The notes: generated by a model not told the origin, from the sequence alone. Shown: positions 5,365 to 58,221, numbered from the stretch's first letter. The stretch is DNA of 64,000 nucleotides from Bacilli bacterium (GCA_017541325.1 JAFXZI010000005.1:6074-70073); one strand, 5' to 3'. Made by a program: numbers and translations.

Positions 5365-5434
5365 TAATAATTAATTGTAAATTAACCTATTATTGTTTAT
5401 AATATATTTGATTACTCAGAAAGAAGGGGTCATC

Positions 5435-29314: not shown

Positions 29315-29323
29315 GTGATTCAA

Positions 29324-32300
29324 ATGAAAAAGAATAAAAACAAAAAGGATACTAAAAATATTGAAAAAGAGTTAGAAGTTAAAGAAGAAGTGTCTACTGA
29401 TATGCCTACTGAAGAAAAAAAAGTTAAAAAAGGAATAAAGTATAATAAAAAACTATTATATATTATTCCTTCTTTTGTTGTTTCAATTATCATTTTATTA
29501 TTGGTTATTACTAGGACAAATGTAGTACCTAATATACTTGGAATAGATACAAATAAAACAGCTAGAATAACTAATATTACTTATCAAGGTAAAAATAAAT
29601 ATCAAATAGAATCTACTTCTAAATTTTTAGTAGAAACAAAAAATATTGCTAAAGATGATTTAAATAAATATCTTGCTTTAGAACCAGCTTATAATTATAC
29701 AATTGAAAATGTTGGTAAAAATAAATTTAAGATTACAGTAGATAATATAGAAGCTAATAAAGTAGTTAATATAGATTTTGTAAATAATGAAAAGATAGAT
29801 AAAAAATGGGCTTTTCAATCTAGTAATAAATATATGGTAAGTTCATCTTATCCAGCTAATAAAGCTAATAAAGTATCAATTAATACAGGAATAGATATAT
29901 CATTTACTCATCCTGGAACTAATATAGAAGAATTCAAAAAACGTTTTGTTATTGAACCAAAAGTAGAAGGAGAATTTACTACATATGGTAGGACAATTAC
30001 TTTTATTCCTAAAGATGAATTAAAACATGGAACTAATTATGTAGTTACATTAAAAAAAGGATTAAAATTAGATGATGATGAAATAAAAGAAGATTATTCT
30101 TTTACATTTACTACTGATGGAAAAGAAAGTGCTAATGCAGCAAGAATAATAAATGATTCCATAACAATAGATAATATTAGTACATTTAAATCAAGTGATT
30201 TACCAAAAATTGCAGTTATTGAAAATGAAGATGCAGAATATGATGAAGATGCTGAAGATGTAACTTATAATTCTATAAAGAAAGTAGTTGTAGAAAAGTT
30301 TTCAAATGCTGATGATTTTGAAAAATATATAAAAGGTAATACAACTATTAAAAGAGAAAATCTTGGAGAATATAAATTTCATAAATATAATACAAAAACA
30401 GTTGAACTAGATAAACAATTAGGAATTGGTTATTATCTATTTAATGTATATACATCAGGAAATCAAATTTTATTTAATTTACCAGTTCAAATAAATAATT
30501 TATCTGCATATCTTATGAATAGTGAAAGAGATTTAATTGTTTGGGTTGCCAATAATGGTAGTTTTGCTAAAGATGTAGAAGTCTCTTATGAAGGTAAAAA
30601 AGAAAAAACAAATGAAGATGGTATTGCACTTATTAAAAATATATCCGATGGATCATTAAATACAAAATATGTAAAAGTAAATAGTGATTCTAAAAATCCT
30701 ATTTTTGTAGGAATTAAAAATTATTCTTTAAATAATTATCCATATGGATATATTTATACAGATCGACCACTATATAAAAATACTGATGAAATAAATGTTT
30801 GGGGATATGTTCCTCTTGAATTTTTTGCTGATTCAGTTGATAGAGACAAATTTAGTATAGTATTTAATGAAAAAAATATACCAGTAAAGGTATCTGAAGA
30901 TGGTACATTTGATGCAAAAATTGCTTTAAATAATCTAGCTAGCGATTATTATTCAATTGAATTAAAATATAATAATACTTTTATAGGATATAGAGAAGTA
31001 ACAGTTGAGAATTATCAATTACAAAACTATATTTATGAAATTAGTACAGATAAAGAATATGTTGAAGCTGGAAAAAGTTTTAAAGCAACTATTAAAGTAA
31101 AACATGTTTCTAATCTACCAGCATCAAATAAAGATGTTAGTGTTGTTTTCTGTGAAAAAACATATAAAGGTAAAACTAATCAAGCTGGAGAAGTAACATT
31201 TAATTTAACTGCTTCAGTAGATCAAGATAATTATTCAAATAATGTACTTTATGAATCAATAGAAATATTAGGAACTGCTTTAGATTCAGAAGATTGGAAT
31301 ATAACATATCCTATATATGTTATATATAATAAAGTAGCTTTTGATAAGGCTAAATATGATGAAAAAACGAAAGTATATTCAGCTGAAATATTTAATTTAG
31401 ATTTAACAAAAAAACTAAATCCAGAACTAGAAGTTGTAGATAGTTTAAGAGGAACTCCTTATAAAGGAAAAGTAAATATTGTTATAAAAGAAGAAAAAAA
31501 TATTAAAACAGTTGAAAAAGAATATGATGAATTTACTAAAACTACTAAAAATGTTTATAGTTGGGAAACGGATTATGAAAAAGAAGTAGTTAATAAAAAT
31601 GTAGATGTAGTAAATGGAAAACTTGCATATAAAGTTGATTACGCATTTAAACAAAAAACAGATAATTCATTCTATTCATATAATATTTATATAACTGTTA
31701 AAGATTCAAACGGACATGAAAATGAAATTTATGATTGGATTTATTCAAATTATTATGATTTGGATGATGAAAAATTAGGGCCAAATGAAGTTGAAGCAAT
31801 ATCATATGGTTATGATACTTATGATTTGTATGAATACGAATTTAATGCTCTAACAGATGAGTGGGATAAGAAATATTCTGTAGGAGAAAAAATAAATACC
31901 AATATTTTAGATAAGACTCAAAATCCTATTAGTAATGATAATAAAGTATTAAGAATAAAATATCGTGAAAAGATTATTTCATCTGGAATAAAACCTTCTT
32001 CTAATCTAGATTTATCTTATGAAAAGAAAGATATTCCTGGAGTTGAATTAACTGGTGCATATTTTGATGGTAAAAACTTTTATCGTATGCCAAGTGGTTA
32101 TTATAAATACAACGAAGAAGATAGTAAGATTAATATAAAGATAACGCCAAATAAAAAAGAATACTCTCCTGGTGATGAAGTTGAAGTTAAAATCAAGACT
32201 GTCGATAAAGATGGAAAGCCAATAAAGAGTAATCTAAATATAAGTGTTGTTAATGAGGCTGTATTTAATCTTGTGGCAGATGATACAAGTATTTTAAGTA

Positions 32301-34132
32301 CAATATATAATTATAGATTCTTTGAATCATATACCTTCTCAACATATCGTAATTATGCTTTAATAGCATTTGATGGAGGAGCTGGAAATGAATCTGGTGG
32401 ACCGAGAGCAGATTTTGGAGATACAATTTATTTTGATAGTGCATCCACAAATAAAGATGGAGAAGCAACTGTTAAATTTAAACTAAATGATTCAGTAACA
32501 AGTTTTAGAATAACAGTACATGCAACTACTAAAGAAGGAAGTGTAGGTGCAAATTATACAAAGATTTCATCTACTTTACCGCTTGCAATAGAATCAAATG
32601 CACCATTATTTGTTAAATCAAGTGATGATTTGGTATTAAATGCAACTTCTATTTCACCAAAGAATAAAAATGAAAAAGTTAATTATACATTTGAAATAAA
32701 AGAATTAAAGAAAAAAATAGATAAAAGTGGTATTCCTGGATCTGTAGTATATGCTAATTTTGGAAAACTAAAAGTTGGTAAATATACTGCTGTAATAACT
32801 GCAAAACAGGGAAAACAAAAAGATGCAGTAGAGTATCCAATAGAAATAATTGAAACAGCAAATGAAATAAAGATAGTTGCTGAAGATAATATTAAAGATG
32901 TAAAGAAAATTAATCCAACTAAGAATCCTATATATGTAGAAGTATATCCAGAGTATTTGAGTAAATATATAAAATATTTAGATAAATTAAACGGATATAC
33001 TGAAAGATTAGATACTAAAATTGGATATTATAAAGCATTAGAGTTTGAAAAGGATTTTTATAATACAGATAATATTATAACTGTTGAAGACTTTTCTAAG
33101 TATCAAAAAGATGGTGGATTAAAAGCGTTAATAAACGGAGATAAAGATGATGTTTTAACTGCATTAAGTTTATATTACACTAATTATTTTGATATAGATT
33201 CTACCTCTTATTATGAAAAAATTGGAAAACAAACAGAAGAAGCTTTCTCTTCAGAAGACGCTTTAACTGAATATGAAAATAATAGAATTAAAGCATTACT
33301 TGTTCTAGCAGCAAAACATGAACCAGTATTATTGGATTTAAATAGTTATACACCTGTAAATGTTGAAGGATATATTTATAAAGCTTTAGCATATATTTTC
33401 TTAGGAGATTATGAAGAAGCAGAAAATATATATAAAAAGGATATAAATAAAGTTCCTGATGATTTAAAATCATTAGTAGCTGTAATAGAGACATTTGTAA
33501 ATCGTGATGAAGCTGGTAAAACAATTGATAATATTTTAAAAACAAAGAAATCAGATGATTATATTAACTTTGCTATTATTTCATATTTCTTAAATAATCA
33601 AGATGAATTATTACATGATGAAAAAGTAACTGTTACTTATGGAGACAAAAAAGAAGAAATAGTAGTTGATAAATATAATGTAAATAGATTAGTTTTATAT
33701 GATGCAAAAGATATTAAATTTAAATCTAAGAGTAAAAAAATAAATGTTTCTTACTATTATGTAGGTAAAGTATCAGAACTTGGAGATAAAGCAGTTAAAA
33801 ATATCAATATTTCAGTTAGTGGTAATAAAACAATTGGAAATACAATGTATTTAAATATTGATACATCTAAAACTGGAAATGGATATAGATATATGTATGT
33901 ATATTTACCTGCAAATGTTTCTTTATCACCTAATAGTTCTAATATTAAGAATGTAGGAGTATCTAAAGTGCTTGAAAATAAAGTATTAATATCTTTATCT
34001 AATAGTAGTCCTACTAAGTTTAGTATTCCATTAGTTGTTAAACTTCCAGGAAAATATACATTTGAAAGTATTATTATGGATAATAATGGTAAGTATAATA
34101 TTTCTAATGAAGTATCTTTTGAAACTAAATAA
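29324..34132 (+). CDS. Membrane-anchored alpha-2-macroglobulin-family (MG-domain) giant surface protein, no thioester motif seen
   Basis: ATG at 29324 behind aggtga. N-terminal TM (YIIPSFVVSIIILLLVI). MG2-type motif YTDRPLYKNTDEINVWGY. A2M-type segment FGDTIYFDSASTNKDGEATVKFKLNDSVTSFRITVHA. No CxEQ was found by eye. Confidence 0.75.
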   Translation: MKKNKNKKDTKNIEKELEVKEEVSTDMPTEEKKVKKGIKYNKKLLYIIPSFVVSIIILLLVITRTNVVPNILGIDTNKTARITNITYQGKNKYQIESTSKFLVETKNIAKDDLNKYLALEPAYNYTIENVGKNKFKITVDNIEANKVVNIDFVNNEKIDKKWAFQSSNKYMVSSSYPANKANKVSINTGIDISFTHPGTNIEEFKKRFVIEPKVEGEFTTYGRTITFIPKDELKHGTNYVVTLKKGLKLDDDEIKEDYSFTFTTDGKESANAARIINDSITIDNISTFKSSDLPKIAVIENEDAEYDEDAEDVTYNSIKKVVVEKFSNADDFEKYIKGNTTIKRENLGEYKFHKYNTKTVELDKQLGIGYYLFNVYTSGNQILFNLPVQINNLSAYLMNSERDLIVWVANNGSFAKDVEVSYEGKKEKTNEDGIALIKNISDGSLNTKYVKVNSDSKNPIFVGIKNYSLNNYPYGYIYTDRPLYKNTDEINVWGYVPLEFFADSVDRDKFSIVFNEKNIPVKVSEDGTFDAKIALNNLASDYYSIELKYNNTFIGYREVTVENYQLQNYIYEISTDKEYVEAGKSFKATIKVKHVSNLPASNKDVSVVFCEKTYKGKTNQAGEVTFNLTASVDQDNYSNNVLYESIEILGTALDSEDWNITYPIYVIYNKVAFDKAKYDEKTKVYSAEIFNLDLTKKLNPELEVVDSLRGTPYKGKVNIVIKEEKNIKTVEKEYDEFTKTTKNVYSWETDYEKEVVNKNVDVVNGKLAYKVDYAFKQKTDNSFYSYNIYITVKDSNGHENEIYDWIYSNYYDLDDEKLGPNEVEAISYGYDTYDLYEYEFNALTDEWDKKYSVGEKINTNILDKTQNPISNDNKVLRIKYREKIISSGIKPSSNLDLSYEKKDIPGVELTGAYFDGKNFYRMPSGYYKYNEEDSKINIKITPNKKEYSPGDEVEVKIKTVDKDGKPIKSNLNISVVNEAVFNLVADDTSILSTIYNYRFFESYTFSTYRNYALIAFDGGAGNESGGPRADFGDTIYFDSASTNKDGEATVKFKLNDSVTSFRITVHATTKEGSVGANYTKISSTLPLAIESNAPLFVKSSDDLVLNATSISPKNKNEKVNYTFEIKELKKKIDKSGIPGSVVYANFGKLKVGKYTAVITAKQGKQKDAVEYPIEIIETANEIKIVAEDNIKDVKKINPTKNPIYVEVYPEYLSKYIKYLDKLNGYTERLDTKIGYYKALEFEKDFYNTDNIITVEDFSKYQKDGGLKALINGDKDDVLTALSLYYTNYFDIDSTSYYEKIGKQTEEAFSSEDALTEYENNRIKALLVLAAKHEPVLLDLNSYTPVNVEGYIYKALAYIFLGDYEEAENIYKKDINKVPDDLKSLVAVIETFVNRDEAGKTIDNILKTKKSDDYINFAIISYFLNNQDELLHDEKVTVTYGDKKEEIVVDKYNVNRLVLYDAKDIKFKSKSKKINVSYYYVGKVSELGDKAVKNINISVSGNKTIGNTMYLNIDTSKTGNGYRYMYVYLPANVSLSPNSSNIKNVGVSKVLENKVLISLSNSSPTKFSIPLVVKLPGKYTFESIIMDNNGKYNISNEVSFETK

Positions 34133-34166: not shown

Positions 34167-34173
34167 ATTTGTA

Positions 34174-34202
34174 TTGACAAAAAAAATTATTTTTTCTATA
34201 AA
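34174..34202 (+). promoter_or_regulatory. Sigma-A-type promoter candidate for topA
   Basis: TTGACA at 34174-34179, a 17-nt spacer, then TATAAA at 34197-34202. Confidence 0.45.
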
Positions 34203-34222
34203 TATAAAAGAGGAGTGAATTT

Positions 34223-36250
34223 ATGGCAAAGAATTTAGTAATAGTTGAGTCTCCTAGCAAGAGTAGAACTATAGAGAAATATTTAGGAAGTGACTATAAA
34301 GTAGTTTCTTCTAAAGGACATATTAGAGATTTAGCAACTACTGGTAAGTATGGACTTGGAGTAGATATCGAAAATGATTTTAAGCCTAACTATATTCCAG
34401 TAGAAGGAAAAACTAAGACTATAAATGATTTAAAAAAAGAAGTAAAAGCACATGAAATGATTTATCTAGCAACCGACCCAGACCGTGAAGGAGAAGCTAT
34501 CGCATGGCATTTAAAAGATGAACTTGGAATAAAAGAAGATAATTATGGTAGAGTATTATTCCACGAAATTACTAAAGATAAAGTAATAGATGCTTTTAAA
34601 TCTATTGGTAAAATTGATTATGATTTAGTACATAGTCAAGAAGCTAGAAGAATATTAGATCGTATTATTGGTTTTAGATTAAGTAAGTTAATGCGTTCTA
34701 AAACTGGTGGTAAAAGTGCTGGTAGAGTTCAAAGTGTTGCTCTAAAACTAATAGTAGATCGTGAACGTGAAATAGAAGCATTTGTACCAGTAGAATACTG
34801 GACTATTACTGCAATATTTAAAGAATTTGAAGCTAAATTATTTGCCTATAACCATAAAGATATTGAAATATCTACTGAAGCTGAAGCAGATGATATTTTA
34901 AGTAAATTAAGCAATAAATTCTTAATAGATTCAATAGAGACAAAATTAAAGAATAAAAAAGCAAAACCCCCATTTATTACAAGTACATTACAACAAGAAG
35001 CAGTTAATAAACTTAATTTTACATCTAAGAAAACAATGTCTATTGCTCAAAAATTATATGAAGGAATTGATTTAAAAAGTGAAACAGTCGGACTTATTAC
35101 TTATATGAGAACTGATTCAGTAAGACTTTCAGATGAATTTATTAAAGCAGGATATGCTTATATTAATGAAAAATATGGAAAAGATTATGTAGGATATGTA
35201 AAAACAACAAAGAAAAAAGAAAATGTTCAAGATGCTCATGAAGCGATTAGACCAACTAGTATTAATAGAACTCCAGAATCGGTAAAAGAATATTTATCAA
35301 CAGATGAGTATAAATTATATAGTATGATTTATTATCGTGCTCTTGCATCTTTAATGGCTGATGCTAAAGTAAATGCTACTACTGTAGTGCTTGATAATAA
35401 TAATTATCAATTTAAAGCTACTGGTCAAGTGCTTGTATTTGATGGATATTTAAAAGTATATAAGGATTATGAAAGTTCAGAAGATAAAATACTTCCAGAT
35501 ATGGAAAAAAATAGAGAAACTGGTTTTATTTCAGAATCAATTGAAAAAGAACAACATTTTACTCAACCACCATCAAGATATACAGAAGCAAAATTAATTA
35601 AAGAAATGGAAGATTTAGGAATAGGTAGACCATCTACTTATGCAACTATTATCGACACTATAAAAGAAAGAGAATATGTAATACTTGATGATAAAAAGTT
35701 TAAACCAACTGAAATTGGAATTGAAACTACTGATAAATTACAAGAATTCTTTAAAGATATTATAAATGTAGAATATACTGCTAAAATGGAAAAAGAATTA
35801 GACGAAATAGCAGATCAAAAAATAACAGAACTTGAAATATTAAGAAAATTTTATGACGAATTTGATCCGTTATTAAAAAAGGCATTTACTGAAATGGAAA
35901 AAGCAGGTCCAGAAGAAACTGGAGAAACTTGTCCAGAATGTGGAAGTCCTTTGGTAATTAGAAAAGGTAAATATGGTGAATTTGTTGCTTGTTCTAATTA
36001 TCCAAAATGTAAATACATAAAAAAAGAACAAAAGGAATCAAAAGATATATGTAAATGTCCAAAATGTGGTGGGACAATAATTGAAAGAACTACTAAAAAA
36101 GGAAAAACATTCTATGGATGTAGTAATTATCCAAAATGTAAATTAGCTTCATGGGACTTACCTACTGGAGAGTTATGTCCTGAATGTAAAAGCCTTTTAG
36201 TAGAAAAAAATGGAACAATTAAATGTAGTAATTGTGATTATGAAAAGTAG
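34223..36250 (+). CDS. topA: DNA topoisomerase I (type IA) with three C-terminal Cys4 zinc ribbons
   Basis: TOPRIM start LVIVESPSKSRTIEKYLG, ATDPDREGEAIAWH, active-site region GLITYMRTDS. CPECG...CSNYPKC, CPKCG...CSNYPKC and CPECK...CSNC ribbons. Confidence 0.95.
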   Translation: MAKNLVIVESPSKSRTIEKYLGSDYKVVSSKGHIRDLATTGKYGLGVDIENDFKPNYIPVEGKTKTINDLKKEVKAHEMIYLATDPDREGEAIAWHLKDELGIKEDNYGRVLFHEITKDKVIDAFKSIGKIDYDLVHSQEARRILDRIIGFRLSKLMRSKTGGKSAGRVQSVALKLIVDREREIEAFVPVEYWTITAIFKEFEAKLFAYNHKDIEISTEAEADDILSKLSNKFLIDSIETKLKNKKAKPPFITSTLQQEAVNKLNFTSKKTMSIAQKLYEGIDLKSETVGLITYMRTDSVRLSDEFIKAGYAYINEKYGKDYVGYVKTTKKKENVQDAHEAIRPTSINRTPESVKEYLSTDEYKLYSMIYYRALASLMADAKVNATTVVLDNNNYQFKATGQVLVFDGYLKVYKDYESSEDKILPDMEKNRETGFISESIEKEQHFTQPPSRYTEAKLIKEMEDLGIGRPSTYATIIDTIKEREYVILDDKKFKPTEIGIETTDKLQEFFKDIINVEYTAKMEKELDEIADQKITELEILRKFYDEFDPLLKKAFTEMEKAGPEETGETCPECGSPLVIRKGKYGEFVACSNYPKCKYIKKEQKESKDICKCPKCGGTIIERTTKKGKTFYGCSNYPKCKLASWDLPTGELCPECKSLLVEKNGTIKCSNCDYEK

Positions 36251-36325
36251 TAGTAAAATACTGCTTTTTTTGTTGTAAAAAGATTTTTTATGTCATATAA
36301 TTAAATAGAGTAGGAAGGTGTCGAT

Positions 36326-37495
36326 ATGAATACTTTAAAGAAAAAAATAATAATTATTGCACTTATATTCGTTAGTGTATTTTTTATAGATAATTACACA
36401 GTTAAAGCTGACACTGTAAAATTAGACAATATATCATTTGAATGTATTTATAGTGATGGAAGTTTGTTTAATGTTACTTGGGCTTCAGATGATGATTCAC
36501 AAATAATTGTTAATAGAGATGTATATAATGTTAGTGGATCATCTAGTCAACAAGCAGGTTCAACTGGTGGAATTAATTACATTAATCCAGAAGGTGTAAG
36601 AGATTCAACTAAGAATCATTGTAGCCCTTACGTAATACTAGGACAAGTAAAAGATAATGAGAATGATGATGAAGAAAGTCCGATGACATATATTAAATAT
36701 ACTTCTCAAAGTGGTGAGCAGTTTAGTGATAGCGATATAAGTCAAGGTGATTCTTGGTTTTTATGGTGGAAAACATCAGATGGTGCAGATCAAGCTAATA
36801 AGAATTTAGTTGAAGGAAAACTTGTATCTGAAAGTGTAAAAATATTTAATACAGAACCTGATGATGCTGTTTATTTTAAAAAGGTTACAACAAGTAGTAA
36901 CGATCCAGTATCCTATATTATTGTAAAAAAATATGGAAATTTTGTAGTATTAGAGTCAAACGGAAGAACAACTCCTATACTTTATGGTTTTGGGTCTTTA
37001 TCATCTATGGCTGATGGGGACGTAATATATGTTAATGATCCTAGACCTCAAGCTTTTAATTCGACTTCTGGAAATTCTTCTTATACTTTTCCAGCTGTGA
37101 GGTTTCAATTATCTAAATCAGCAACTACAAATGTTAAGTATAAATATGAAAAGGTAAATAGTGATGATGTACCACCACTTGATCCTAGTTCTGCTCTTTG
37201 TGAACAATATTTAGAGCATACAGCAGGAACTTTAAGAGATATAATACAAATCGTTCAATTATTAGTACCAGCTTTAATGATAGTACTATGTGGTATTGAT
37301 CTTGCAAGAATAGTATTTGCAGGAAAGATAGAAGATGAATTACCAAAAGCAAGAAAGAGACTTATTATTAGATTAATAATTGGTGCTGCATTCTTCTTTG
37401 TTCCATTAGTTGTAAATTTAGTAATTACTATGCTAAAAGAGTCTGGTGGAGAAAACATGGAATTGATTGAAGAAATTGGATGTTTATTTAATTAG
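36326..37495 (+). CDS. Secreted protein whose C-terminal two-helix hairpin resembles TrbC/VirB2-type (ICE pilin-like) proteins
   Basis: Signal peptide IIIIALIFVSVFFIDNYTVKA. About 290-aa extracellular region. Then two helices, IVQLLVPALMIVLCGIDLARIVFAG and LIIRLIIGAAFFFVPLVVNLVITML, separated by the basic loop KIEDELPKARKR. The CDS is confident; the family assignment is by topology only. Confidence 0.5.
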   Translation: MNTLKKKIIIIALIFVSVFFIDNYTVKADTVKLDNISFECIYSDGSLFNVTWASDDDSQIIVNRDVYNVSGSSSQQAGSTGGINYINPEGVRDSTKNHCSPYVILGQVKDNENDDEESPMTYIKYTSQSGEQFSDSDISQGDSWFLWWKTSDGADQANKNLVEGKLVSESVKIFNTEPDDAVYFKKVTTSSNDPVSYIIVKKYGNFVVLESNGRTTPILYGFGSLSSMADGDVIYVNDPRPQAFNSTSGNSSYTFPAVRFQLSKSATTNVKYKYEKVNSDDVPPLDPSSALCEQYLEHTAGTLRDIIQIVQLLVPALMIVLCGIDLARIVFAGKIEDELPKARKRLIIRLIIGAAFFFVPLVVNLVITMLKESGGENMELIEEIGCLFN

Positions 37496-37533
37496 TATTT
37501 AAAAAGATTTACAATATAAGGAGATGATGAATA

Positions 37534-40179
37534 ATGCCAGTAAATGATATCATTGGTATGGTAATGTCCTTGGTTCAAATAGGATTACAAGTTGGAGAAA
37601 TGGGTATAGTTCACTGGATTCTATTTAATAACGGATGGGTTTACTTAGGACGAGTAATAGGATTTAGAATTGATTTAAGAATTGTACACTATATTGGCGT
37701 TTTTTATGATTATTTTATGAAAATGCTATCAAATGACATTTTTAATGAGGACATAACTAGAGAAATTTTAACTAATATATATGTATTCATTGGCGTTATT
37801 ATGGCATTTAGGTTAATGATGTTATTAATGAAGTATTTAATTAATCCTGATTTGACGGCGGATGCTAAATTAGGTGTAACATCATTAATTAGACGTGTTA
37901 TTATTGGATGTGTTGGTATTCTGTTTATTCCAACAATTTTCGATTTAGCACTTAAATTACAATCTGGTATAATACAGGATAATTTAATTCAAAAAATAAT
38001 CATTCCAAAAAGCATACTTCCAAGTATTAATAAGGTACAGGCTAAAGGTGGTAAGTATATAGCAACCTTTATACAGGCTGGATTTGTTACTCCTTCTGAT
38101 ACTGCACCACAAAGTCTTAAAGATTCTTATAAAACAGGAATTGAAAATGGAGATTTGTCTGTTTTGAAAGGTTCAATGCTTCAAGGATTCCTTGGAGATG
38201 TTGATAATTATGATTTAAACTATGTTCCAATCGTATCTACTATAGTTTTAGCATATGCTCTAATGCAAATGGCAAAGTATTGCTTGGATCTTGCAGTAAG
38301 GTGTCTTAGATTGTTATTATATAAAATTTTAACTCCAGTAGCGATGATAGAATACATGATAAAAGGTGCAGATGATGGAGTATTTAAAGCTTGGAAAAAA
38401 GCAATAATAAGTACATATGTTTCTTTATTTGTAAGGGTTATGGCTCTATGGTTCGTTATATTTGTAACGGCACTGATGCAGACTAACAGTGGTATTGATT
38501 CTAAATATATTGCTGGGTCATTACTTGAAGATCCAAATGATACATTATTAAGAGCTCTTATAATTGTTGCACTTCTAGGATTTATGATGGATTTACCAAA
38601 ATTAGTAGGATCATTATTTGATTTAGACTTAGAACAATCTGGTGGAGCAGATGGAGTATTTAAATCTATTACTGGATTAGTAAAATCAGGATATATTGCA
38701 GGAATAGGAGCTACAGCTGCTATGGTTGGATCTGGTGTTAATGCTTTAGGTGCAGGAAAAGACTTATTAAAACAAGTTCCGGGTATTAAAAATGGATTGA
38801 ACAAGACTGTAGGTAGCGGATTCTTTAATAATAATAGATTTGGTCAAGGACTCAAAGGATTTGCCGATGCATCGGGTAAAGCAGGAACTGCTGATAGACT
38901 TAGAGCAGGAAATATGGGATTGTTAGGCGCTGCGGCTGCAATGAATCCTATAACTAAGGGTATTCTTTCTGGATATCAATCAACCGAAGAAGCAGGTAGA
39001 AAAGAAGGTATATCTGCTGCTAAAGGTACAAAAGGAAAAGAAAAAGAAGCAGCTCAAAGAGCAGAAGATCAAGCAGAAGCTAGAGAAAATGCAGATAGAG
39101 TTGCAAGACAAGTTGAGTCTAATGCACAAAAACAAGTACAAACTCTTGCTAATCAAATAGCTCAAAATAATCCTAGTATGTCTGAAGCTGATATTAAGCA
39201 AAAAGTTGAAGCTCAATTGGGTGTCAATGCAGATGCTGTTACTGCAGCACTTACTGCGCTTCAAGGTCAATTAGCTGGAGGATTAGAACTTCCAATTAAA
39301 GCAGTTGCAAAACAACTTGATGATGCAACTGGTGGAGGACACATTAATTCAATTACTGCTTCTATAGAAAGTGTTGTAGGTCAAGGAGGAGCAATTACGG
39401 CTGGTAATGTTTCAGGTGTTGTTGCACAAGCTCAAACTGATCTAGAACATACTATTAGCGTTCAAGCAGCATCTGCTGCTCATGAAGCTAGGGTTGCATT
39501 CCCACAAGATGCTAGTGGTACACCACAACATGGTTATGTAAATGGAGCTCCAGTAGTTGTACAAGATACTTCTTCAACAACAACTTCAGCGCCTGGACCA
39601 ACTATTACTACAACTGGAAGTGGTCCAACAATTGATTTAGATTCAGTTAAGATTAATGTTACTGGAAAAGCAGAAGCAAATTATAATGGTGGATTAGAAA
39701 CAACTATTACTGGACCTGCTAAAACAACATATAATGGATCTCTTGAAACAGAATTTAACGGTGATGTTAAAGGTTACTATAATCAAGGTATGACTGTTGA
39801 TGTAGGTGGACCAGTTAGTGCTACATATTATGACAACATTGATGTTAAAGTTGGTGGAAGTGTTAACACTGATGTTCAACAAGATGTTAATACAACAATA
39901 CATCAAGATGTTAACAATGTTGTTGAAGGAAGCGTTACTAATACAGTTAAACAAGATGTAGATAATTTAGTTGAAGGTAATGTTACTAATGTAGTTGAAC
40001 AAAATGTTGAAAATTTAGTTAAAAATCAATCAACAATAGTTCAAGAAGACAGTGTTACACAAATAAACGGAAAAGCAACTACGGTTGTAAATAAAGATGC
40101 AGACATTCATGTTAATGGAAATGTAAATACTGATATAGGAAATAACAGTAGAAAAAATAAAGACAAAGATGATGCATAA
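37534..40179 (+). CDS. Polytopic membrane protein, VirB6/TrbL-like, with about 400-aa repetitive hydrophilic C-terminal extension
   Basis: RBS aaggag. Multiple TM helices over the first about 440 aa, then a Gly/Ala-rich segment, a coiled-coil-like AQRAEDQAEARENADRVARQVE segment, and Val/Asn/Asp tandem repeats. The position directly after a VirB2-like gene mirrors the pilin-VirB6 order of T4SS/ICE loci. Confidence 0.5.
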   Translation: MPVNDIIGMVMSLVQIGLQVGEMGIVHWILFNNGWVYLGRVIGFRIDLRIVHYIGVFYDYFMKMLSNDIFNEDITREILTNIYVFIGVIMAFRLMMLLMKYLINPDLTADAKLGVTSLIRRVIIGCVGILFIPTIFDLALKLQSGIIQDNLIQKIIIPKSILPSINKVQAKGGKYIATFIQAGFVTPSDTAPQSLKDSYKTGIENGDLSVLKGSMLQGFLGDVDNYDLNYVPIVSTIVLAYALMQMAKYCLDLAVRCLRLLLYKILTPVAMIEYMIKGADDGVFKAWKKAIISTYVSLFVRVMALWFVIFVTALMQTNSGIDSKYIAGSLLEDPNDTLLRALIIVALLGFMMDLPKLVGSLFDLDLEQSGGADGVFKSITGLVKSGYIAGIGATAAMVGSGVNALGAGKDLLKQVPGIKNGLNKTVGSGFFNNNRFGQGLKGFADASGKAGTADRLRAGNMGLLGAAAAMNPITKGILSGYQSTEEAGRKEGISAAKGTKGKEKEAAQRAEDQAEARENADRVARQVESNAQKQVQTLANQIAQNNPSMSEADIKQKVEAQLGVNADAVTAALTALQGQLAGGLELPIKAVAKQLDDATGGGHINSITASIESVVGQGGAITAGNVSGVVAQAQTDLEHTISVQAASAAHEARVAFPQDASGTPQHGYVNGAPVVVQDTSSTTTSAPGPTITTTGSGPTIDLDSVKINVTGKAEANYNGGLETTITGPAKTTYNGSLETEFNGDVKGYYNQGMTVDVGGPVSATYYDNIDVKVGGSVNTDVQQDVNTTIHQDVNNVVEGSVTNTVKQDVDNLVEGNVTNVVEQNVENLVKNQSTIVQEDSVTQINGKATTVVNKDADIHVNGNVNTDIGNNSRKNKDKDDA
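39904..40047 (+). repeat. Three tandem 48-nt (16-aa) degenerate repeats in the C-terminal tail of the VirB6-like gene
   Basis: QDVNNVVEGSVTNTVK, QDVDNLVEGNVTNVVE and QNVENLVKNQSTIVQE. Unit starts read off at 39904, 39952 and 40000. Confidence 0.8.
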
Positions 40180-40184
40180 TAATT

Positions 40185-40212
40185 AAGCAAGCTAAAAAGC
40201 TTGCTTTTTCTT
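40185..40212 (+). terminator. Rho-independent terminator
   Basis: aagcaagc taaaaa gcttgctt hairpin followed by a T-rich run. Confidence 0.7.
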
Positions 40213-40254
40213 TTTTATAAAAAGTATAAATGATATAATAATTTTGGTGATATT

Positions 40255-42864
40255 ATGAAAAAAGTTTTATTGATTGATGGTAATAATATTTTATTTCGTA
40301 GTTATTATGCTACTGCATATAATGGTAATACTATGAAAAATAGTAAAGGATTTCCTACTAATGCTTTATATGGTCTTGTTAATATGATGAATAAAATAAT
40401 TCATGAAGAAAATCCTGAGTATGTAATGATTGCTTTTGATAAAGGTAAAACTTTTAGGCATGATAAATATTCTGATTATAAAGGAGGAAGAAGTGCAACT
40501 CCTGATGAACTTATAGTTCAATTTCCTAAAGCTAGAGAATTAGTTACAGCAATGGGATTTAAATATTATGAAATAGATAATTATGAAGCTGATGATATTA
40601 TAGGTACATTTGCTAAAAAAGTAGATGAAAGTAATGACTATGTTGCTACTATTATTTCTAGTGATAAAGACCTTTTACAATTAATAAGTGATAAAGTAGA
40701 AGTAAAACTTCTTAAATCAAATGATTATATTCGTATGACTAAAGAAGAATTTGAAAAGACGTATGGTATAGAACCTCCTCGTATGGTCGATTTAAAAGCT
40801 CTTATGGGAGACTCTAGTGATAATATTCCGGGAGTAGCTGGTGTTGGCGAAAAAACAGCTTTAAAACTTTTACAAGAATATCATACATTAGGTAATCTAT
40901 ATAATAATATTGATTCTGTATCAGGAAAACTAAAAGATAAATTAGTAGTATCTCGTGATAATGCTTTTATGAGTTATGATCTTGCTACTATTTATAAAGA
41001 TGTAGATATTGATACTAATTTTAATAATATTAAATATACCGGTATTGATACTTTAAAATATATAGATATTTTAAATGATTTAGAGTTTTATTCATTTATT
41101 AAGAAAATGGATATTTCAGAATCTACTATAAAAGAAAATATAATTGATATTGATTATAAAATTATAGATGATTTAGATAAAATTAATTTAAAAGATGATT
41201 TTTCTATATATGTTGAAACTTTTGGATATAATTATCATAAAGATAAAGTACTGGGTATATCTATTTATAATAAAGAAATGTCATATTATATTCCTTTTGA
41301 AGTAATTAAGAATAATCCAACTATTTTAAATAGTACTTATAAGAAGAGTACATATGATTTAAAAAAATTAATATATGTTTTAAAAAGTAATAATTTAAGT
41401 ATTTCAAATGTAGATTTTGATCTGATGATAGCAGAATATCTTCTAAATGAAAATATTAAAGATGATATTGCATATCTTATGAATAATAATGGATATAATG
41501 TAGATTTTTATGAAAAAGAGTTTGGTACTCTTGCAAAACTTTCTCTTCCAGATGAAGAAGTAATCGCTAAAAACGCTTGTATGAAAGCAAAGTTTATTTA
41601 TGAAATGAAAGATTCGGTTATATCTAAATTAAAAGAAGAAAAGAGTTTGAATCTATTTGAAAATCTAGAAATGCCTCTTGTATCAGTTTTAGCTGATATG
41701 GAATTAACCGGTATTAAAGTTAATAAAGACTATTTGATTGAGATGGGGAAAGAATTAAATGAAAAGATAGATTCTATTGCAAAAGAAATATACAAATTAA
41801 GTGGAGAAGAATTTAATATTTCATCTCCAAAACAGTTAAGCGAAATATTATTTATAAAAATGGGATTACCATATCCAAAAAGAGTTAAAAACGAGTCATA
41901 TTCTACAAGTGTTGATATTCTACAAAAATTAGAATCTGTTCATCCAATTGTTCCTTTAATAGAAGAATATCGTACTTTAACTAAATTAAATGGAACATAT
42001 ATTGAAGGATTAATAAATGAAATTGATAATGATGGAAGAATTCATACTTGTTTTAATCAAACTTTAACTAGAACAGGAAGACTATCTTCATCTAATCCTA
42101 ATTTACAAAATATACCAATTCGTTATGAATATGGAAAACTAATTAGAAAAGCTTTTGTTCCTGATCCTGATTCAATTATTCTATCAAGTGATTATTCGCA
42201 AATTGAACTTAGAGTATTTGCATCTTTATCAAATGCAACTAATATGATTGAAGCATTTAAAAATGGCCTTGATATTCATGCTAAAACAGCGAGTGATATT
42301 TTTGGTGTTCCAATAGATAAAGTTGAACCTAAAATGAGAAGAGAAGCTAAAGTAGTTAATTTTGGTATTTTATATGGTATGAGTAGTTTTGGACTTTCTG
42401 AAGACTTAAATATGAATTTTAAAGAGGCACAACAGTTTTTAGACAATTATTTAAACAGTTATCCTGCTATAAAAGAATATATGGATAATGTTGTAAAAGT
42501 TGCTCATGAACAAGGATATGTAAAAACTATAATGGGTCGTAAACGTATTATAGATGAACTTAATAATAAGAATTATTTAATTCGTCAAAGTGGTGAAAGA
42601 ATGGCTAAAAATACGCCAGTACAAGGAAGTGCGGCTGACATTCTAAAGAAAGCTATGATTGAGATTTATGATGAATTTAATAAACGAGGACTTAAAAGTA
42701 AAATGTTAATTCAAGTACATGATGAACTTGTATTTAATATATTAAAAAACGAAGAGGAAGAAGCTACTAAAATAATTGTAGATATTATGGAAAATACATA
42801 TAAATTAGAAGTACCTCTTGTTGTAGATGTTAATAAAGGATCTGATTGGTACGAAGCAAAGTAG
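40255..42864 (+). CDS. polA: DNA polymerase I
   Basis: 5'-nuclease N-terminus (LLIDGNNILFRSYYA, GDSSDNIPGVAGVGEKTA). Pol motif A SSDYSQIELRVFA, motif B RREAKVVNFGILYG, motif C QVHDELV. Confidence 0.95.
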   Translation: MKKVLLIDGNNILFRSYYATAYNGNTMKNSKGFPTNALYGLVNMMNKIIHEENPEYVMIAFDKGKTFRHDKYSDYKGGRSATPDELIVQFPKARELVTAMGFKYYEIDNYEADDIIGTFAKKVDESNDYVATIISSDKDLLQLISDKVEVKLLKSNDYIRMTKEEFEKTYGIEPPRMVDLKALMGDSSDNIPGVAGVGEKTALKLLQEYHTLGNLYNNIDSVSGKLKDKLVVSRDNAFMSYDLATIYKDVDIDTNFNNIKYTGIDTLKYIDILNDLEFYSFIKKMDISESTIKENIIDIDYKIIDDLDKINLKDDFSIYVETFGYNYHKDKVLGISIYNKEMSYYIPFEVIKNNPTILNSTYKKSTYDLKKLIYVLKSNNLSISNVDFDLMIAEYLLNENIKDDIAYLMNNNGYNVDFYEKEFGTLAKLSLPDEEVIAKNACMKAKFIYEMKDSVISKLKEEKSLNLFENLEMPLVSVLADMELTGIKVNKDYLIEMGKELNEKIDSIAKEIYKLSGEEFNISSPKQLSEILFIKMGLPYPKRVKNESYSTSVDILQKLESVHPIVPLIEEYRTLTKLNGTYIEGLINEIDNDGRIHTCFNQTLTRTGRLSSSNPNLQNIPIRYEYGKLIRKAFVPDPDSIILSSDYSQIELRVFASLSNATNMIEAFKNGLDIHAKTASDIFGVPIDKVEPKMRREAKVVNFGILYGMSSFGLSEDLNMNFKEAQQFLDNYLNSYPAIKEYMDNVVKVAHEQGYVKTIMGRKRIIDELNNKNYLIRQSGERMAKNTPVQGSAADILKKAMIEIYDEFNKRGLKSKMLIQVHDELVFNILKNEEEEATKIIVDIMENTYKLEVPLVVDVNKGSDWYEAK

Positions 42865-45489: not shown

Positions 45490-48400
45490 ATGGATAAAGA
45501 GATTAAAAACTTATTAGAAAAGTTAGAAATTGATTCCAAGTATTATAGTGAATTTGATAATGCTACTGTAGGTAAAGTTTCAATTAATAAAAAGTACAAT
45601 GTTGTTTCACTATATTTAAATACTGAATCTAATTTAAGTATTGAATTATATGAAGAATTAGAACGTTCTTTAAATAACTTTTTTAATAGTGAAAGATCTC
45701 TTGTTTTTATTTCACCTAAAAATAGAAATATTGATTATTTTAATAAGTATTTTAATAAGGCATTTCATATTATTGAAAAAAAGAATCCAATTATAAATAT
45801 CTTTAGTGATAGACTAATAAAAGTAGATGATAACTACTATGTTGAAGCACTAAATAAAGCTGAACAAAGACAAATAAATGGATTTTTAAAAGATATAAAT
45901 AACTATATGAATATGTATGGTTATAGCGTAAATATAAGTACTCAAATAAATGAAGAAAAAAGAAATGATATAAAACATAGTATTGATTCTGAAAAAGAAA
46001 AAACAAAAGAAGAAGTAAAAGAAATAGAAAGAAAAATAGAAGAAAAGAAAAAAGAAGAGAAAATATTAAAGAAACAAAGAGAAGAAAAAATAAAAATAGA
46101 AAAAGAACAAACAGATGAAAGTGTCTTAAAAGGGAGGGCAATTTTAGATAAAGTAAAAAGAATTAAAGATTTAGTTGTTGAAGAAGATTCTGTTTCAATT
46201 GAAGGAGAATTGTTTGGAGTAGAAACTTTTGAACCAGCTAGTCACGAATTTAAAATTATTACTTTAAAAGTAACTGATTATACTGATAGTATTACTGCTA
46301 AACTGTTCTTAAGAGATGAAGAAGAATATAATTCCATTATTAGTAAATTAAAAAGTGGGGTTAATGTTAAATTAAGAGGATATACTAAAGTAGATAAGTA
46401 TTCTGCTTCTGAATTAGTACTTAATTTAAGAGATATTAATGTTATTGAAAAAGAAGTTAATAAAAGAGTAGATACTTATCCAAGAAAGAGAATAGAACTT
46501 CATTCTCATACAAAAATGAGTGATATGGATTCTGTATGTGATGAAGTAGCTTTAGTTAAACAAGCTATTAAATGGGGACATCCTGGAATTGCTATAACTG
46601 ATCATGATTGTTGTCAAGCTTTTCCACATGTTTATTCAGAAGTTTCTAAATATAATAAAGGATTAGATGCACCTGTAAAAGATGCAAAGAAAAAAGTAGC
46701 AGAACTAGAAAAAGAAGTAGAAGAACATCCTGAGAAAACGAATTTACTTGAACTTGCTAGAGAAGAATTAGAAGAAGCTAAAGAAAAAAGAAAAAATACA
46801 CCTAACTTTAAAGCATTATATGGATGTGAACTTGAAATGAGTGAAGACTACTTAAATGTAGTATATAACTCTACTAACAAAAAAATAGATGATATAGCAT
46901 TTGTTGTATTCGATACAGAGACAACTGGTTTTAATGCTGGATTAGGCGACTCTATGATTGAAATTGGAGCTGTAAAAGTTAAAAATGGTGTTATTACTGA
47001 TGAAAGATTTGATGAATTAATTAATCCTGGACGTCATATTGATTCTGTTATAACTAATCTTACTGGAATTAGTGATTTTAAAGTACGTGATGCCGATAAT
47101 GAAGAAAATGTAGTTAAAAGATTTAAAGAATTTATTGGAGATGCTGTATTAGTAGCTCATAATGCAAAATTCGATAAATCAATGCTTGATATGGCATATT
47201 ATAAGTATGGTTTAGGTAAACTTACTAATCCTATTGTTGATACTTTAAATCTATCTAGAGTAATTAATAAAGATTTAAAAAGACATAGTTTATCTGCTCT
47301 AACTAAGTTCTATAAAATTGAAATGGATGAAGTAGATAATGAAGATGATGAAGATAGAGTAGAAACTGTAGAAGAAGATTCTGCTTTTGAAAGCGATTTT
47401 TCTGGAATAAAAGAGATTAAAGTAAATGGAAATATTGCTTATTCTGATGTAGATAAAAAACTTATTCAAGTTGAATTTGAAGAAGAGTCAGAAGTAGAAA
47501 TAGAAGTAGTTTATAACAATTCTTCTATTACATCAGTTATTAATTATGGAAGTCGTAAAGAAAATATTAAACCTGGAAAAAATAATATTTTAATAAAATA
47601 TGTAGATGATAATATTGAAAAAGAAGTAAATATTACTGTTAATAAAGTAAGAAGTCACCATAGAGCAGACTACGATGCTGAAAAAACAGCTGAAATGTTC
47701 TTAAAAATGCTTGGTGGTATTAAAGATTTAAAAGACTTATCAGAACTTTCTAGTGTAGAATTTTTATGTGAAAAATCTGGACAAACTTTAAATCCACTTG
47801 AAACTGAATATGATAATATTCCTCATAAAACAGTAGCAGAAAAAGTTATAAATGATAATAGTCGTGCTATGCATGTAAATTTAATAGCAAAGAATAAAAT
47901 AGGTTTAAAGAACTTATTTAAGATTATTAGTTATGCCAATACTGGCTTCTTACTTAAATATGCTAGGATTCCAAGAAGAATAATAGAAGAAAATAGAGAA
48001 GGAATATTAATTGGATCATGTTGTGAAAGTGGAGAAATATTTGATATAGCTTTAACTCGAACTGATGAAGATTTAATTAAAGCAATGGAGTTTTATGACT
48101 ATATAGAAGTTCAACCACCAACAAATTATTTATATTTAGTTAGAAATAGAGATATAAATAGTCTAGATGAAATTAAAGAAGTTATTAATAAAATTATTAG
48201 ATGTGCTAAAAAGTGTGGAAAAATAATATGTGCAACTGGAGATGTTCATAATATTAATAAAGAAGATTTAATCTATCGTGAAATAATAGTAAATCAATCT
48301 AGTCCATCTAAAGGAAGACATCCTTTAGCACGTTATTTAAATCGTAAAGGTATTGCTGCATCTAATGAAGACTTATTTGAGAAAATAAAAAGAATTAGTA

Positions 48401-56592: not shown

Positions 56593-58221
56593 ATGAAAAA
56601 AATAATTAAAAAGATTAAATCTTTAGGAATTAGTGGATTTACTTTAATAGAATTATTAGGTGTTTTAGTAATTATGGGATTATTAATTCTTGTAGTTATG
56701 CCTAACTTATATAAATTAATTCACAAAAATGATGCCAAAGATTATACAACTTATTATGATTTAATTGAATTTGGAGCAGTAAAATATGCTGATGATGCTA
56801 GAAGTGAACTTGGAACAACTCATGATATTGGTTGTACTCATATTTCACTGGAAGAACTTGTACAAAAAGAATATGTTAGTGAATTTTCTAAAAAAGGAGT
56901 AGATTGTTCACTTGGAAGTCATGGAATAGTTATTAGAAATAATAATGGTAAGATAACTGTTAAGTATAGAATGACTTGTAAAAAAGGTGATGATGTAATC
57001 TTTGCTGAAGGTGAAGATGATGCTTTAACTTGCCTAGCTTATAAAGGTGACGATAGTATTAGTTTTGTTGAAAAAATAAGTGGATTAACTCATACTGATA
57101 AAGATAATATTTCATATATAACAGCTACTTCAAACTATGTAAAATTCTCTGGTCAATTATTTAGAATTGTTAGTATTAATAAAACATTAAATACTGTGAA
57201 ATTAGTTTCAGATACTCCAGTAGCATCTATTAGATATAACGGAGATGAAAGAACAACATACACTAATAGTGATATAGAAATGTGGTTAAATAATGAATAC
57301 TTAAAATCATTACAACCTGATTATAGAACATACTTAGCATCAGCTGCTTGGAAACCAACTTCAACAACAACAAGAAAAGCAGTTGTAGGTTTAGTTAGTA
57401 AAGAAGATTATGGATATATTAGTGGTTGGTATGGATCAGATCAATCTTGGTTATTAGACGAAGGTGGATTTACTGCTAAATCACCATTTGGTAATCCAGC
57501 AGTTAATTCATTCCATTCTGTAAGACCTGCTATTACTTTAAATCCTGATGTTGTATGGCACAGTGGTACTGGAAGTAAAACAGATCCATATGTAATTAGC
57601 GATACTCCAATTGGAGCTGTAGATGAATTCTTAAATCAAAGAATTCCAGGAGAATATGTTAAATTTAGCGGAAGTAAATATAGAATAGTTTCAGTTAATG
57701 CAGAAGGAACAAAACTAATTGGAACAGCATCAATTGGTAAAAAGAAGTTTGCTGATGAATTAGGAGAAGGAGCATTAAACTATTTAATTGATTCAAGTAA
57801 TTTAGGTATTTATTTAAACGATGGATGGATTACATCTTTATCAGGAGGAGAGAAAAACTTATTAGATAAAGGTGATTTCTGCCTAGATACAATTAATAGT
57901 ACAGTAACAACTAGATTATCAACAACTTGTATAGATGATACATTAATAAAGAGTATGAAAGTAGGAGTTCCTAAAATAGGAGAACTATTTACTGGACCAT
58001 ATGCTGGAATAAATTATTGGACAGTTAATCCTAATACTATTAGAAATGATGGAGGAACATATACTAATTCAACTATTAATGTTGTAAAAAGTGATGGAAC
58101 TATAGCTGGAGTTAATATTAAAGACCAATCAACAGATGTAGTTGTAGTAATCTATTTAGGTTCAAATGTTCAAATAAATGGTGGTAGTGGAACAGAAGCA
58201 TCACCATATACAATAAAGTAA
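56593..58221 (+). CDS. Modular type IV pilin-like protein (prepilin leader plus about 490-aa C-terminal module)
   Basis: MKKIIKKIKSLGISG/FTLIELLGVLVIMGLLILVVMP is a class III signal with Glu+5. The C-terminal module has two segments ending in GTGSKTDPYVI and GSGTEASPYTI. Confidence 0.8.
   Translation: MKKIIKKIKSLGISGFTLIELLGVLVIMGLLILVVMPNLYKLIHKNDAKDYTTYYDLIEFGAVKYADDARSELGTTHDIGCTHISLEELVQKEYVSEFSKKGVDCSLGSHGIVIRNNNGKITVKYRMTCKKGDDVIFAEGEDDALTCLAYKGDDSISFVEKISGLTHTDKDNISYITATSNYVKFSGQLFRIVSINKTLNTVKLVSDTPVASIRYNGDERTTYTNSDIEMWLNNEYLKSLQPDYRTYLASAAWKPTSTTTRKAVVGLVSKEDYGYISGWYGSDQSWLLDEGGFTAKSPFGNPAVNSFHSVRPAITLNPDVVWHSGTGSKTDPYVISDTPIGAVDEFLNQRIPGEYVKFSGSKYRIVSVNAEGTKLIGTASIGKKKFADELGEGALNYLIDSSNLGIYLNDGWITSLSGGEKNLLDKGDFCLDTINSTVTTRLSTTCIDDTLIKSMKVGVPKIGELFTGPYAGINYWTVNPNTIRNDGGTYTNSTINVVKSDGTIAGVNIKDQSTDVVVVIYLGSNVQINGGSGTEASPYTIK

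Follow-up and report, generated by a model that had tools for sequence, protein, structure and literature searches.

A variable pilin-fusion and VirB6-like gene pair between topA and polA is an accessory duplicate of a type IV secretion module in a gut Bacilli lineage

Introduction

What are a pilin-like protein and a polytopic channel-like protein, both reminiscent of type IV secretion system (T4SS) subunits, doing between topA and polA? The question is raised by a 64,000-nucleotide stretch from a Bacilli bacterium (GCA_017541325.1, JAFXZI010000005.1:6074-70073; this whole stretch is referred to below as the window), in which two open reading frames (ORFs), A and B, lie about 28 kb downstream of genes for VirB4-like and VirD4-like ATPases. 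A preliminary description, made from the sequence alone, proposed that the pair completes a minimal Gram-positive T4SS whose parts are scattered through the chromosome. The analysis reported here leads to a different answer: the pair is an accessory, monophyletic duplicate of a pilin-fusion/VirB6-like module native to the lineage's T4SS, and not a missing part of it. According to a 2025 review, VirB2-type pilins are absent from Gram-positive T4SSs except those of Patescibacteria, which are unique among monoderms in possibly building pili, and the role of the "extended" VirB6 proteins, the class to which ORF B belongs, is unknown (PMC12857230).

Layout of the topA-polA interval

ORFs A and B form a small operon of their own in the topA-polA interval, arranged as follows.

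34223..36250, + strand: topA, conserved left flank of the cassette
36273..36301, + strand: promoter-like site TTGTAA-17-TATAAT inside the 75-bp topA-A spacer (10 of 12 consensus matches; a consensus match only)
36326..37495, + strand: ORF A, 389 amino acids (aa)
37534..40179, + strand: ORF B, 881 aa
40185..40206, + strand: intrinsic-terminator-like hairpin, a 9-bp stem followed by a T-run, closing the pair ahead of polA
40255..42864, + strand: polA, conserved right flank of the cassette

ORF calls, hydropathy, and AlphaFold models confirmed the preliminary description in that both ORFs lie where it placed them, the first encoding a secreted hairpin protein and the second a polytopic protein with a hydrophilic tail. 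The ribosome-binding sites and terminator that it had assigned to the pair are also present, since Shine-Dalgarno-like sequences precede the starts of ORF A (GGAAGG) and ORF B (AAGGAG) and the terminator-like hairpin follows ORF B. No terminator-like hairpin was found between topA and ORF A, so read-through from topA into A may occur. An Rfam scan of positions 33500-41000 returned no RNA family. The GC content is 0.29-0.36 over the A-B region compared to 0.24-0.30 nearby, because the tail of ORF B is rich in Gly and Ala. An ORF-calling artifact is ruled out because the pair is intact at topA-polA in 17 related loci, carries invariant residues, and shows a low ratio of nonsynonymous to synonymous divergence (dN/dS, ~0.17-0.25) in its membrane parts.

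Relationship of the pair to T4SS genes

Is the likeness to T4SS subunits one of homology? The closest material for comparison is the T4SS locus on the window's own contig (L096), which extends upstream of window position 1. Directly before its VirB4 N-terminal gene, this locus encodes a 125-aa pilin, a 583-aa polytopic protein, and a 111-aa PrgI/VirB3-like protein with two transmembrane (TM) segments. The 125-aa protein, consisting of a signal peptide and a hairpin, matches T4SS_pilin with an E value of 8.6e-5, and the 583-aa protein passes Pfam TrbL_4 (27.7 bits; cut-off, 27). The core of B is 26% identical to this TrbL_4-positive protein over 376 aa (E 6e-26), and the hairpin of A is 34% identical to the 125-aa pilin over 77 aa (E 3e-11). 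The two hairpins have in common a Cys before helix 1, VP in helix 1, an Asp at the end of helix 1, an Arg in the loop, FFVP in helix 2, and a C-terminal Cys.

Comparisons at the family level gave the same result. First, hhalign matched the B family to the resident VirB6-like proteins of the T4SS loci at 100% (E 6e-55) and the A hairpin to the resident pilins at 99.5% (E 1e-22), compared to 0.4% for the control, the two-TM VirB3-like family. Second, hidden Markov models (HMMs) made from topA-polA-type sequences alone were searched in the T4SS loci of relatives (36 listed of ~80), where pilins scored 1e-11 to 1e-22 and VirB6-like genes 1e-37 to 1e-58. Third, TrbL_4 was matched by 39 of 65 B-family members at E values up to 0.01 (best, 3.7e-10), and Pfam T4SS_pilin (PF18895) was matched by 67 of 131 hairpin-family members (best, 9e-8), with TrbC (PF04956) matched by 2 more. 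Finally, a Foldseek search with the B model returned chains of R388 TrwI/VirB6 (7o3v, 8rtd, and 8rt9) as all of its top seven PDB matches, the best of them a moderate match with a probability of 1.00, an E value of 1.4e-2, and a target TM-score of 0.47 over 320 columns.

Because the pairwise, HMM, hhalign, family-level Pfam, and fold matches agree, remote homology of the A hairpin to T4SS_pilin/VirB2-like proteins and of the B core to TrbL_4/VirB6-like proteins is supported. The VirB2-like plus VirB6-like identity first suggested for the pair is thereby upheld by profile searches, and its tie to the T4SS ATPases at the start of the window is real as homology, via the genes beside virB3/virB4. 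The preliminary description had conceded that the link would break if neither profile nor structural likeness to VirB2 or VirB6 turned up; the profile matches and the B fold search contradict this. The fold search with the A model stayed at noise level.

Searched singly, A and B gave only weak HrpJ and weak gp5 matches in Pfam, NCBIfam, and PHROGs, and PDB sequence profiles of both families gave only low-complexity or coiled-coil noise. A chance topological look-alike, unrelated to T4SSs, would fit with the failure of either window protein to reach a curated Pfam or NCBIfam threshold and with the lack of a PDB sequence match. The probability of such a coincidence is practically negligible, given the strong pairwise, HMM, and profile-profile matches to genes flanking virB3/virB4, the negative result for a control of the same topology, and a fold search that ranks VirB6 first.

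Domain structure of ORF A

ORF A is divided into three parts.

36326..36409, + strand: predicted signal peptide, aa 1-28 (...TVKA/D; from hydropathy, the cleavage being inferred)
36410..37198, + strand: variable beta-rich ectodomain, aa 29-291, with conserved Cys40 and Cys99 (AlphaFold model)
37199..37495, + strand: VirB2/T4SS_pilin-like two-helix hairpin, aa 292-389, with near-invariant Cys292 and Cys386 at its ends and a basic loop predicted to be cytoplasmic

The N-terminal hydrophobic segment is conserved among homologs. In the AlphaFold model the beta-rich ectodomain is followed by a C-terminal helical hairpin. The ectodomain, hydrophilic and ~260 aa long, was modeled at a predicted local distance difference test score (pLDDT) of 70-90 over most of its length; it has no match in Pfam, PDB sequence profiles, or Foldseek, and its HMM matches topA-polA copies only, not the fusions of the T4SS loci. 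Hydropathy places the helices of the hairpin at aa 306-324 and 350-368; the loop between them (25 residues, aa 325-349) has 7 Lys or Arg residues, and a 21-residue tail follows the second helix. Judged by hydropathy and the model, A has the signal peptide, two helices, and short basic loop that characterize VirB2, TrbC, and T4SS_pilin proteins. However, a small mature pilin has ~70-120 aa and is essentially a hairpin, whereas A has 389 aa and an ectodomain of ~260 aa. In A the pilin domain is part of a fusion, which sets the protein apart from classical small or major pilins. Over 131 hairpin-family proteins, Cys292, Cys386, and Arg349 are invariant or nearly so. Because the bracketing cysteines are conserved in this way throughout the family, a disulfide joining both ends of the pilin domain is suggested, and a Cys292-Cys386 bond may close the hairpin of A.

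Domain structure of ORF B

ORF B likewise has three parts.

37534..38628, + strand: VirB6/TrbL-like polytopic core, aa 1-365, with five strong TM helices, a ~90-aa TM2-TM3 loop, and invariant P105, R256, P268, and W287
38629..39753, + strand: Gly/Ala-rich linker and helical, coiled-coil-like hydrophilic region, aa 366-740 (model)
39754..40137, + strand: ~16 octad repeats, V-x-G/Q-x-V-x-x-x, of the gp5-like beta-helix type, aa 741-868 (8-residue register)

Single-sequence and family-averaged hydropathy place the TM helices at aa 81-99, 122-140, 233-251, 296-314, and 341-359, which gives B the polytopic form of VirB6, with at least five helices and a large loop after TM2. A sixth helix at aa 386-404 was considered and rejected, its hydropathy being weak and the positive-inside rule speaking against it. 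VirB6 genes are also encoded beside virB3/virB4; B, 28 kb from virB4, is not, and only its paralog is placed canonically. Extended VirB6 proteins are set apart by a large C-proximal hydrophilic domain (PMC12857230), and B, with a tail of ~520 aa (aa 360-881), is a member of this class. P105, R256, P268, and W287 are invariant in all 95 VirB6-like sequences. A conserved essential Trp lies in the TM-cytoplasmic region of VirB6 (PMC2653234); W287 of B, invariant in 95 of 95, is a candidate counterpart of the Agrobacterium tumefaciens Trp.

The N-terminal 380 residues of the B model have pLDDT values of 80-95. The helices at aa 499-655 are at 70-85, and the rest of aa 366-740 is of low confidence and variable in sequence among homologs. 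Tandem DNA repeats of 48 bp and 24 bp at 39904-40023 underlie the octads. In PHROGs, B matches the gp5 hub phrog_430 weakly (E 2.4e-5), and two homologs (P0003 and P0004) pass the Pfam Gp5_trimer_C cut-off in their tails, whereas other homologs have coiled-coil tails instead. To our knowledge, neither the combination of Gp5_trimer_C with VirB6 nor the composition of the B tail (Gly/Ala-rich stretch, coiled coil, and octads) has a counterpart in VirB6 descriptions. The VirB6 topology and the positive-inside charge distribution make it more likely that the tail is cytoplasmic.

The main T4SS locus

If A and B completed a scattered T4SS, the main locus should be deficient without them. The part of that locus inside the window consists of five genes.

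17..601, + strand: split VirB4, N-terminal TraC/CagE-like part, 194 aa
598..2388, + strand: split VirB4, ATPase part, 596 aa; proposed motor partner of the pair
2479..4665, + strand: SpoIID/glucosaminidase wall hydrolase
4675..5364, + strand: 229-aa lipoprotein-like protein
5393..7861, + strand: VirD4 coupling protein (T4SS-DNA_transf, 2.3e-57)

The VirB4-like (598..2388) and VirD4-like (5393..7861) genes reported earlier are therefore real. The two VirB4 genes overlap by 4 bp, and the window edge divides the locus here (17..2388 and L096:7553-10053). The main locus is self-sufficient because its own pilin, VirB6-like, and VirB3-like genes adjoin the split VirB4; it is the window edge that cuts the locus. 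This means that the proposal of a minimal T4SS completed by the pair does not hold, the genes it lacked lying directly upstream of the window. From the pilin(s) and the VirB6-like and VirB3-like genes, the full locus runs on through the split VirB4 and the hydrolase to a small gene of bitopic or lipoprotein-like type and VirD4, an order that recurs in the listed T4SS loci of relatives. The co-occurrence expected between pair and ATPases also failed to appear: VirB4 relatives are present in at least 525 species-representative genomes, the pair in one subclade only.

The ATPase part of VirB4 is 77-95% identical in the 80 best of these relatives. Mean identities over seven genomes are 91.5% for VirB4, 81% for TopA, and 71% for PolA. 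A T4SS gene more conserved than topA and polA is unusual, and this suggests a core, possibly essential VirB4 function. An integrative conjugative element (ICE) would be expected to show an integrase, a relaxase, boundaries, and sporadic presence; the locus is instead syntenic, with VirB4 retained at 77-95% identity across species, and no relaxase or integrase Pfam domain occurs in the window or the 10 kb upstream of it. The main T4SS is a core, vertically inherited chromosomal machine of a large, low-GC, uncultured gut Bacilli clade, not an ICE. Members of the clade, which may correspond to GTDB order RF39, include Clostridium sp. CAG:710, Candidatus Faecimonas, and Candidatus Pelethosoma, and NCBI places them in Bacilli incertae sedis. 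Outside the clade, VirB4 finds its nearest named relatives among Erysipelotrichales "VirB4 family" proteins (~34% identity). A Patescibacteria origin of VirB4 was rejected on the ground of these nearest matches. The label of an undescribed system, first given to the dispersed arrangement, is not borne out for that arrangement and fits better the lineage's whole pilin-bearing chromosomal T4SS; no description of this T4SS or of the cassette was found in the searchable literature, which is absence of evidence only.

Several other genes accompany the T4SS loci. In some relatives VirD4 is followed by a gene for a staphylococcal-nuclease-like protein (SNase, E 7e-10), for example, at L031:18112-18729, and an AP endonuclease gene lies within the T4SS locus of the window genome (L096:6614-7495); together they hint at a DNA-related role. 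Just downstream of the T4SS genes, the 1278-aa product of 9697..13533 combines five Flg_new repeats and an ephrin-receptor-like domain with a prepilin N-methylation motif. Two more N_methyl pilin-like genes lie upstream of the T4SS locus (L096:5264-6540), and a weak N_methyl protein is encoded at 56593..58221. Adhesins resembling type IV pilins are thus interspersed with the T4SS.

Distribution and origin of the pair

Where, then, did the pair come from? It is confined to one subclade (TopA identity of at least ~76%), with 0, 1, or 2 copies at topA-polA. The interval measures 3.5-4.8 kb with one pair and 8.1 kb with two pairs plus a ~315-aa bitopic gene. At the empty sites, found in the outgroup L113 and in L107, polA begins 63-77 bp after topA; the empty site of L107 is probably due to loss, because L107 is nested in the pair-bearing subclade. 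Immediately before its VirB6-like gene, each listed T4SS locus has a gene for a hairpin protein. The length of these proteins, 127-567 aa, varies with the N-terminal ectodomain that many of them possess; a good example is a fusion whose ectodomain consists of Flg_new (Listeria-Bacteroides) repeats (E 7e-30). The constant position of the hairpin gene directly upstream of the VirB6-like gene means that a variable-ectodomain hairpin protein followed by a VirB6-like protein is a native T4SS module.

In a neighbor-joining tree, the 17 satellite VirB6-like copies, those at topA-polA, form a single clade apart from all resident copies. An older split within it separates topA-proximal from polA-proximal copies, and the window copy belongs to the polA-proximal group. 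In the simplest history, the module was duplicated once into the topA-polA spacer, then duplicated again in tandem in some lines and occasionally lost.

VirB2-like and VirB6-like genes are typical cargo of mobile elements, and the patchy presence of the pair (0-2 copies), together with a synonymous divergence far above that of its flanks (described below), would suit a decaying remnant of a conjugative element integrated between topA and polA. We rejected this origin as very improbable for want of mobile-element genes or boundaries around intact, monophyletic copies. The interval has no integrase, relaxase, ATPase, or repeat boundary and holds only A, B, and, in some genomes, 1-2 small bitopic genes; nor did Pfam reveal a relaxase or integrase elsewhere in the window or within 10 kb upstream of it. 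All 17 loci have intact ORFs whose membrane cores are under purifying selection, and the copies are nearest to the lineage's own chromosomal T4SS genes. The raised GC content is accounted for by the Gly/Ala-rich tail.

Larger cassettes occur in relatives, with 1-2 extra genes for proteins of ~305-411 aa (L001:4112-5059, L004:4293-5231, L012:12084-13319, and L013:12243-13322). The 315-aa type has a charged N terminus, one TM helix, and an extracellular domain, a VirB8-like topology. Neither of the two families of extra genes (~315 aa and ~305-411 aa) matched T4SS-locus genes or Pfam. In a more distant genome, a small pilin gene and a gene for an 812-aa VirB6-like protein lie ~7 kb downstream of topA (L169:18700-21623).

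Sequence variability of the cassette

Further comparison of the pair with its flanks showed that the cassette is hypervariable. In the nearest relatives found, L098 and L183, TopA and PolA are 91-93% identical to those of the window, whereas A is 30% and 48% and B 42% and 45% identical, respectively. Where residues are identical, the third bases of four-fold sites agree at 60-75% in the flanks and 39-52% in the pair, compared to a chance value of 46%; a fast-evolving A2M-like neighbor (62% protein identity) has kept 60%. Because identity at these sites is near chance in the pair and higher in the flanks, the divergence is more than fast protein evolution. In the closest pair of genomes, L013 and L014 (TopA, 97%), the synonymous divergence (dS) is 0.23 for topA, 0.40 for polA, and 1.28 for A and is saturated for the B core. 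Over seven genomes, the resident pilin and VirB6-like genes have a mean identity of 51-53% compared to 36% for A.

Different parts of the cassette differ in selection. The dN/dS ratio is 0.17-0.25 in the hairpin and core, 0.23-1.03 in the ectodomain, and 0.6-0.74 in the B tail, which is 29% identical. This contrast indicates that the membrane parts are under purifying selection and that the ectodomain and tail are diversifying. The cassette alleles appear to be older than their flanks, and we interpret the pattern as the result of recombination that is anchored in topA and polA and exchanges alleles.

The A2M-like protein (1605 aa; Big_5, A2M_BRD, and A2M domains) is encoded at 29315..34132, directly upstream of topA. 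Its gene is 60-62% identical in the nearest relative, with synonymous divergence as in the flanks.

Other features of the window

A serpin gene lies at 59218..60513; the serpin and the A2M-like protein are both of protease-inhibitor type. PolC (45490..51126) has 1878 aa, several hundred residues more than usual, with ~600 residues between the exonuclease domain, which ends at aa 612, and Pol III alpha, which starts at aa 1207. Pfam gave neither an intein nor another domain in this stretch (aa 612-1207) at E values up to 1e-4.

Discussion

How might an accessory duplicate of a T4SS module be used? We favor, with some confidence, a role of the pair as alternative surface and channel subunits for the main T4SS, although its joining of that machine is inferred. 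B would insert in the membrane with VirB6 topology and, at the VirB3/VirB4/VirD4 engine, take the place of the resident VirB6-like subunit or mix with it. A would be exported by Sec and anchored through its VirB2-like hairpin, perhaps clamped by the Cys292-Cys386 disulfide. It would then dock on its cognate B and be displayed on, or built into, a pilus- or stalk-like structure of small pilins, with the ectodomain acting as a variable contact or adhesin module. In the structure-based model of R388, VirB6 is reportedly a platform that recruits VirB2, and the joint duplication of a pilin gene and a VirB6 gene fits this idea. Finally, the position of the cassette between two highly conserved genes would allow whole alleles to be swapped by homologous recombination, and such swapping would shift target specificity or evade recognition.

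The pair may instead have been neofunctionalized for surface display, B being only a scaffold for A, a hairpin-anchored variable adhesin or decoy that works independently of the ATPases. We consider this unlikely, though worth weighing. It agrees with the pair's own promoter-like site and terminator, its distance of 28 kb from the ATPases, its identity of only 26-34% to the resident copies, the absence of the A ectodomain from the T4SS-locus fusions in the HMM search, and the fact that most of the lineage dispenses with the pair. However, P105, R256, P268, and W287 have been kept in B, as have the Cys bracket of the hairpin and Arg349 in A. Because these residues, invariant across resident and satellite copies, persist, the ancestral interactions appear to have been retained. 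In addition, the native gene order of the module is preserved, and the interval encodes no other energy source or partner.

Several points weigh against the pair serving the main T4SS as swappable alternative subunits. First, the physical joining of A and B to the VirB3/VirB4/VirD4 machine is a postulate of this model. Second, membership in the T4SS families is transitive for both proteins, because neither reaches a Pfam cut-off itself: B has no TrbL match in Pfam or NCBIfam, and the sole match of the A hairpin alone is to PF18895, with an E value of 0.017 and 15.6 bits, below the cut-off of 26.6. The Foldseek support for B (E 1.4e-2; TM-score, 0.47) is modest. Third, the contribution of the pair is dispensable, because most species of the lineage run the T4SS without it. 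Fourth, a B tail that is more likely cytoplasmic suits a surface role of the gp5-like repeats badly. Finally, the high dS could come from a locally raised mutation rate instead of allele exchange, and the 14 contigs with identical TopA all carry an identical pair, which is uninformative on variation within species.

Comparison with known systems places these alternative subunits in context. The nearest parallel among monoderms is the chromosomal T4SS of Patescibacteria, described for Candidatus Southlakia epibionticum, which likewise has VirB1-, VirB3-, VirB4-, and VirB6-like parts (PMC10633639, PMC12102498). Both have PF18895/VirB2-like pilins, several divergent paralogs, no relaxase near the locus, and small genomes. 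They differ in that the host here is a gut Bacilli bacterium, that VirD4 is present whereas none is recognizable in the Southlakia system, and that the nearest named VirB4 relatives are those of Erysipelotrichales, at 34% identity. Moreover, the extra pilin of the Bacilli carries a fused ectodomain and arose at a distant locus by duplication together with a VirB6-like gene, whereas there the pilins form a tandem array.

A second parallel is the rvh T4SS of Rickettsiales, with vertical inheritance, reduced genomes, components in several chromosomal islets, and multiple divergent extended VirB6 paralogs (674-1154 aa) that vary most in their flanking regions (PMC2653234). The related T4SSs of Anaplasma and Bartonella have variable VirB2 paralogs, to which a part in antigenic variation or host range has been attributed (cited in PMC12102498). 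The rvh system differs in being diderm, with its VirB6 copies in tandem; here there are one resident copy and 1-2 satellites, each with a pilin-fusion gene. Because the main locus here is complete alone, it is also no true archipelago.

F-plasmid TraG is an example of an extended VirB6 protein. Like the members of this class, B has at least five hydrophobic helices and a large C-proximal hydrophilic domain (PMC12857230), whereas its tail, compared by description, is distinct in being Gly/Ala-rich with a coiled coil and gp5-type octads. PrgH of pCF10, Orf15 of Tn916, and TcpH of pCW3 are polytopic VirB6 analogs encoded just upstream of VirB3-like and VirB4 genes, as is the resident copy; again compared by description, they differ in belonging to mobile elements that carry relaxases and have no VirB2-like pilins. 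The octad V-x-G-x-x-x-x-x periodicity of the B tail recalls the C-terminal beta-helix of phage T4 gp5 and VgrG, but the repeats of B are on a membrane protein and not a baseplate hub, in a region where model confidence is low.

A wider reading joins the two findings: the core pilin-bearing T4SS would serve an obligate cell-to-cell interaction, and the cassette would be its swappable specificity module. Taken as a whole, this is distinctly unlikely. The interaction would be epibiosis, predation, or the acquisition of nutrients or DNA from other bacteria or a host, by a kind of T4SS so far thought unique to Patescibacteria among monoderms. The module, a pilin-anchored adhesin with a cognate extended VirB6 protein bearing a gp5-like spike, would be traded through recombination between the conserved genes on either side, and it would determine the partner cells open to engagement.

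Of the two findings, the lineage-wide pilin-bearing core T4SS is more interesting than the duplicated cassette. A gut Bacilli clade with hundreds of species-level genomes and a core chromosomal T4SS of this type runs counter to the view that such systems are found in Patescibacteria only, and it offers, independently of Patescibacteria, another lineage for studying the function of a pilin-bearing monoderm T4SS that is not conjugative. The cassette adds natural variants of extended VirB6 proteins and a concrete hypothesis of cognate pilin-VirB6 pairing and specificity switching. The system may also bear on the resistance of these bacteria to cultivation.

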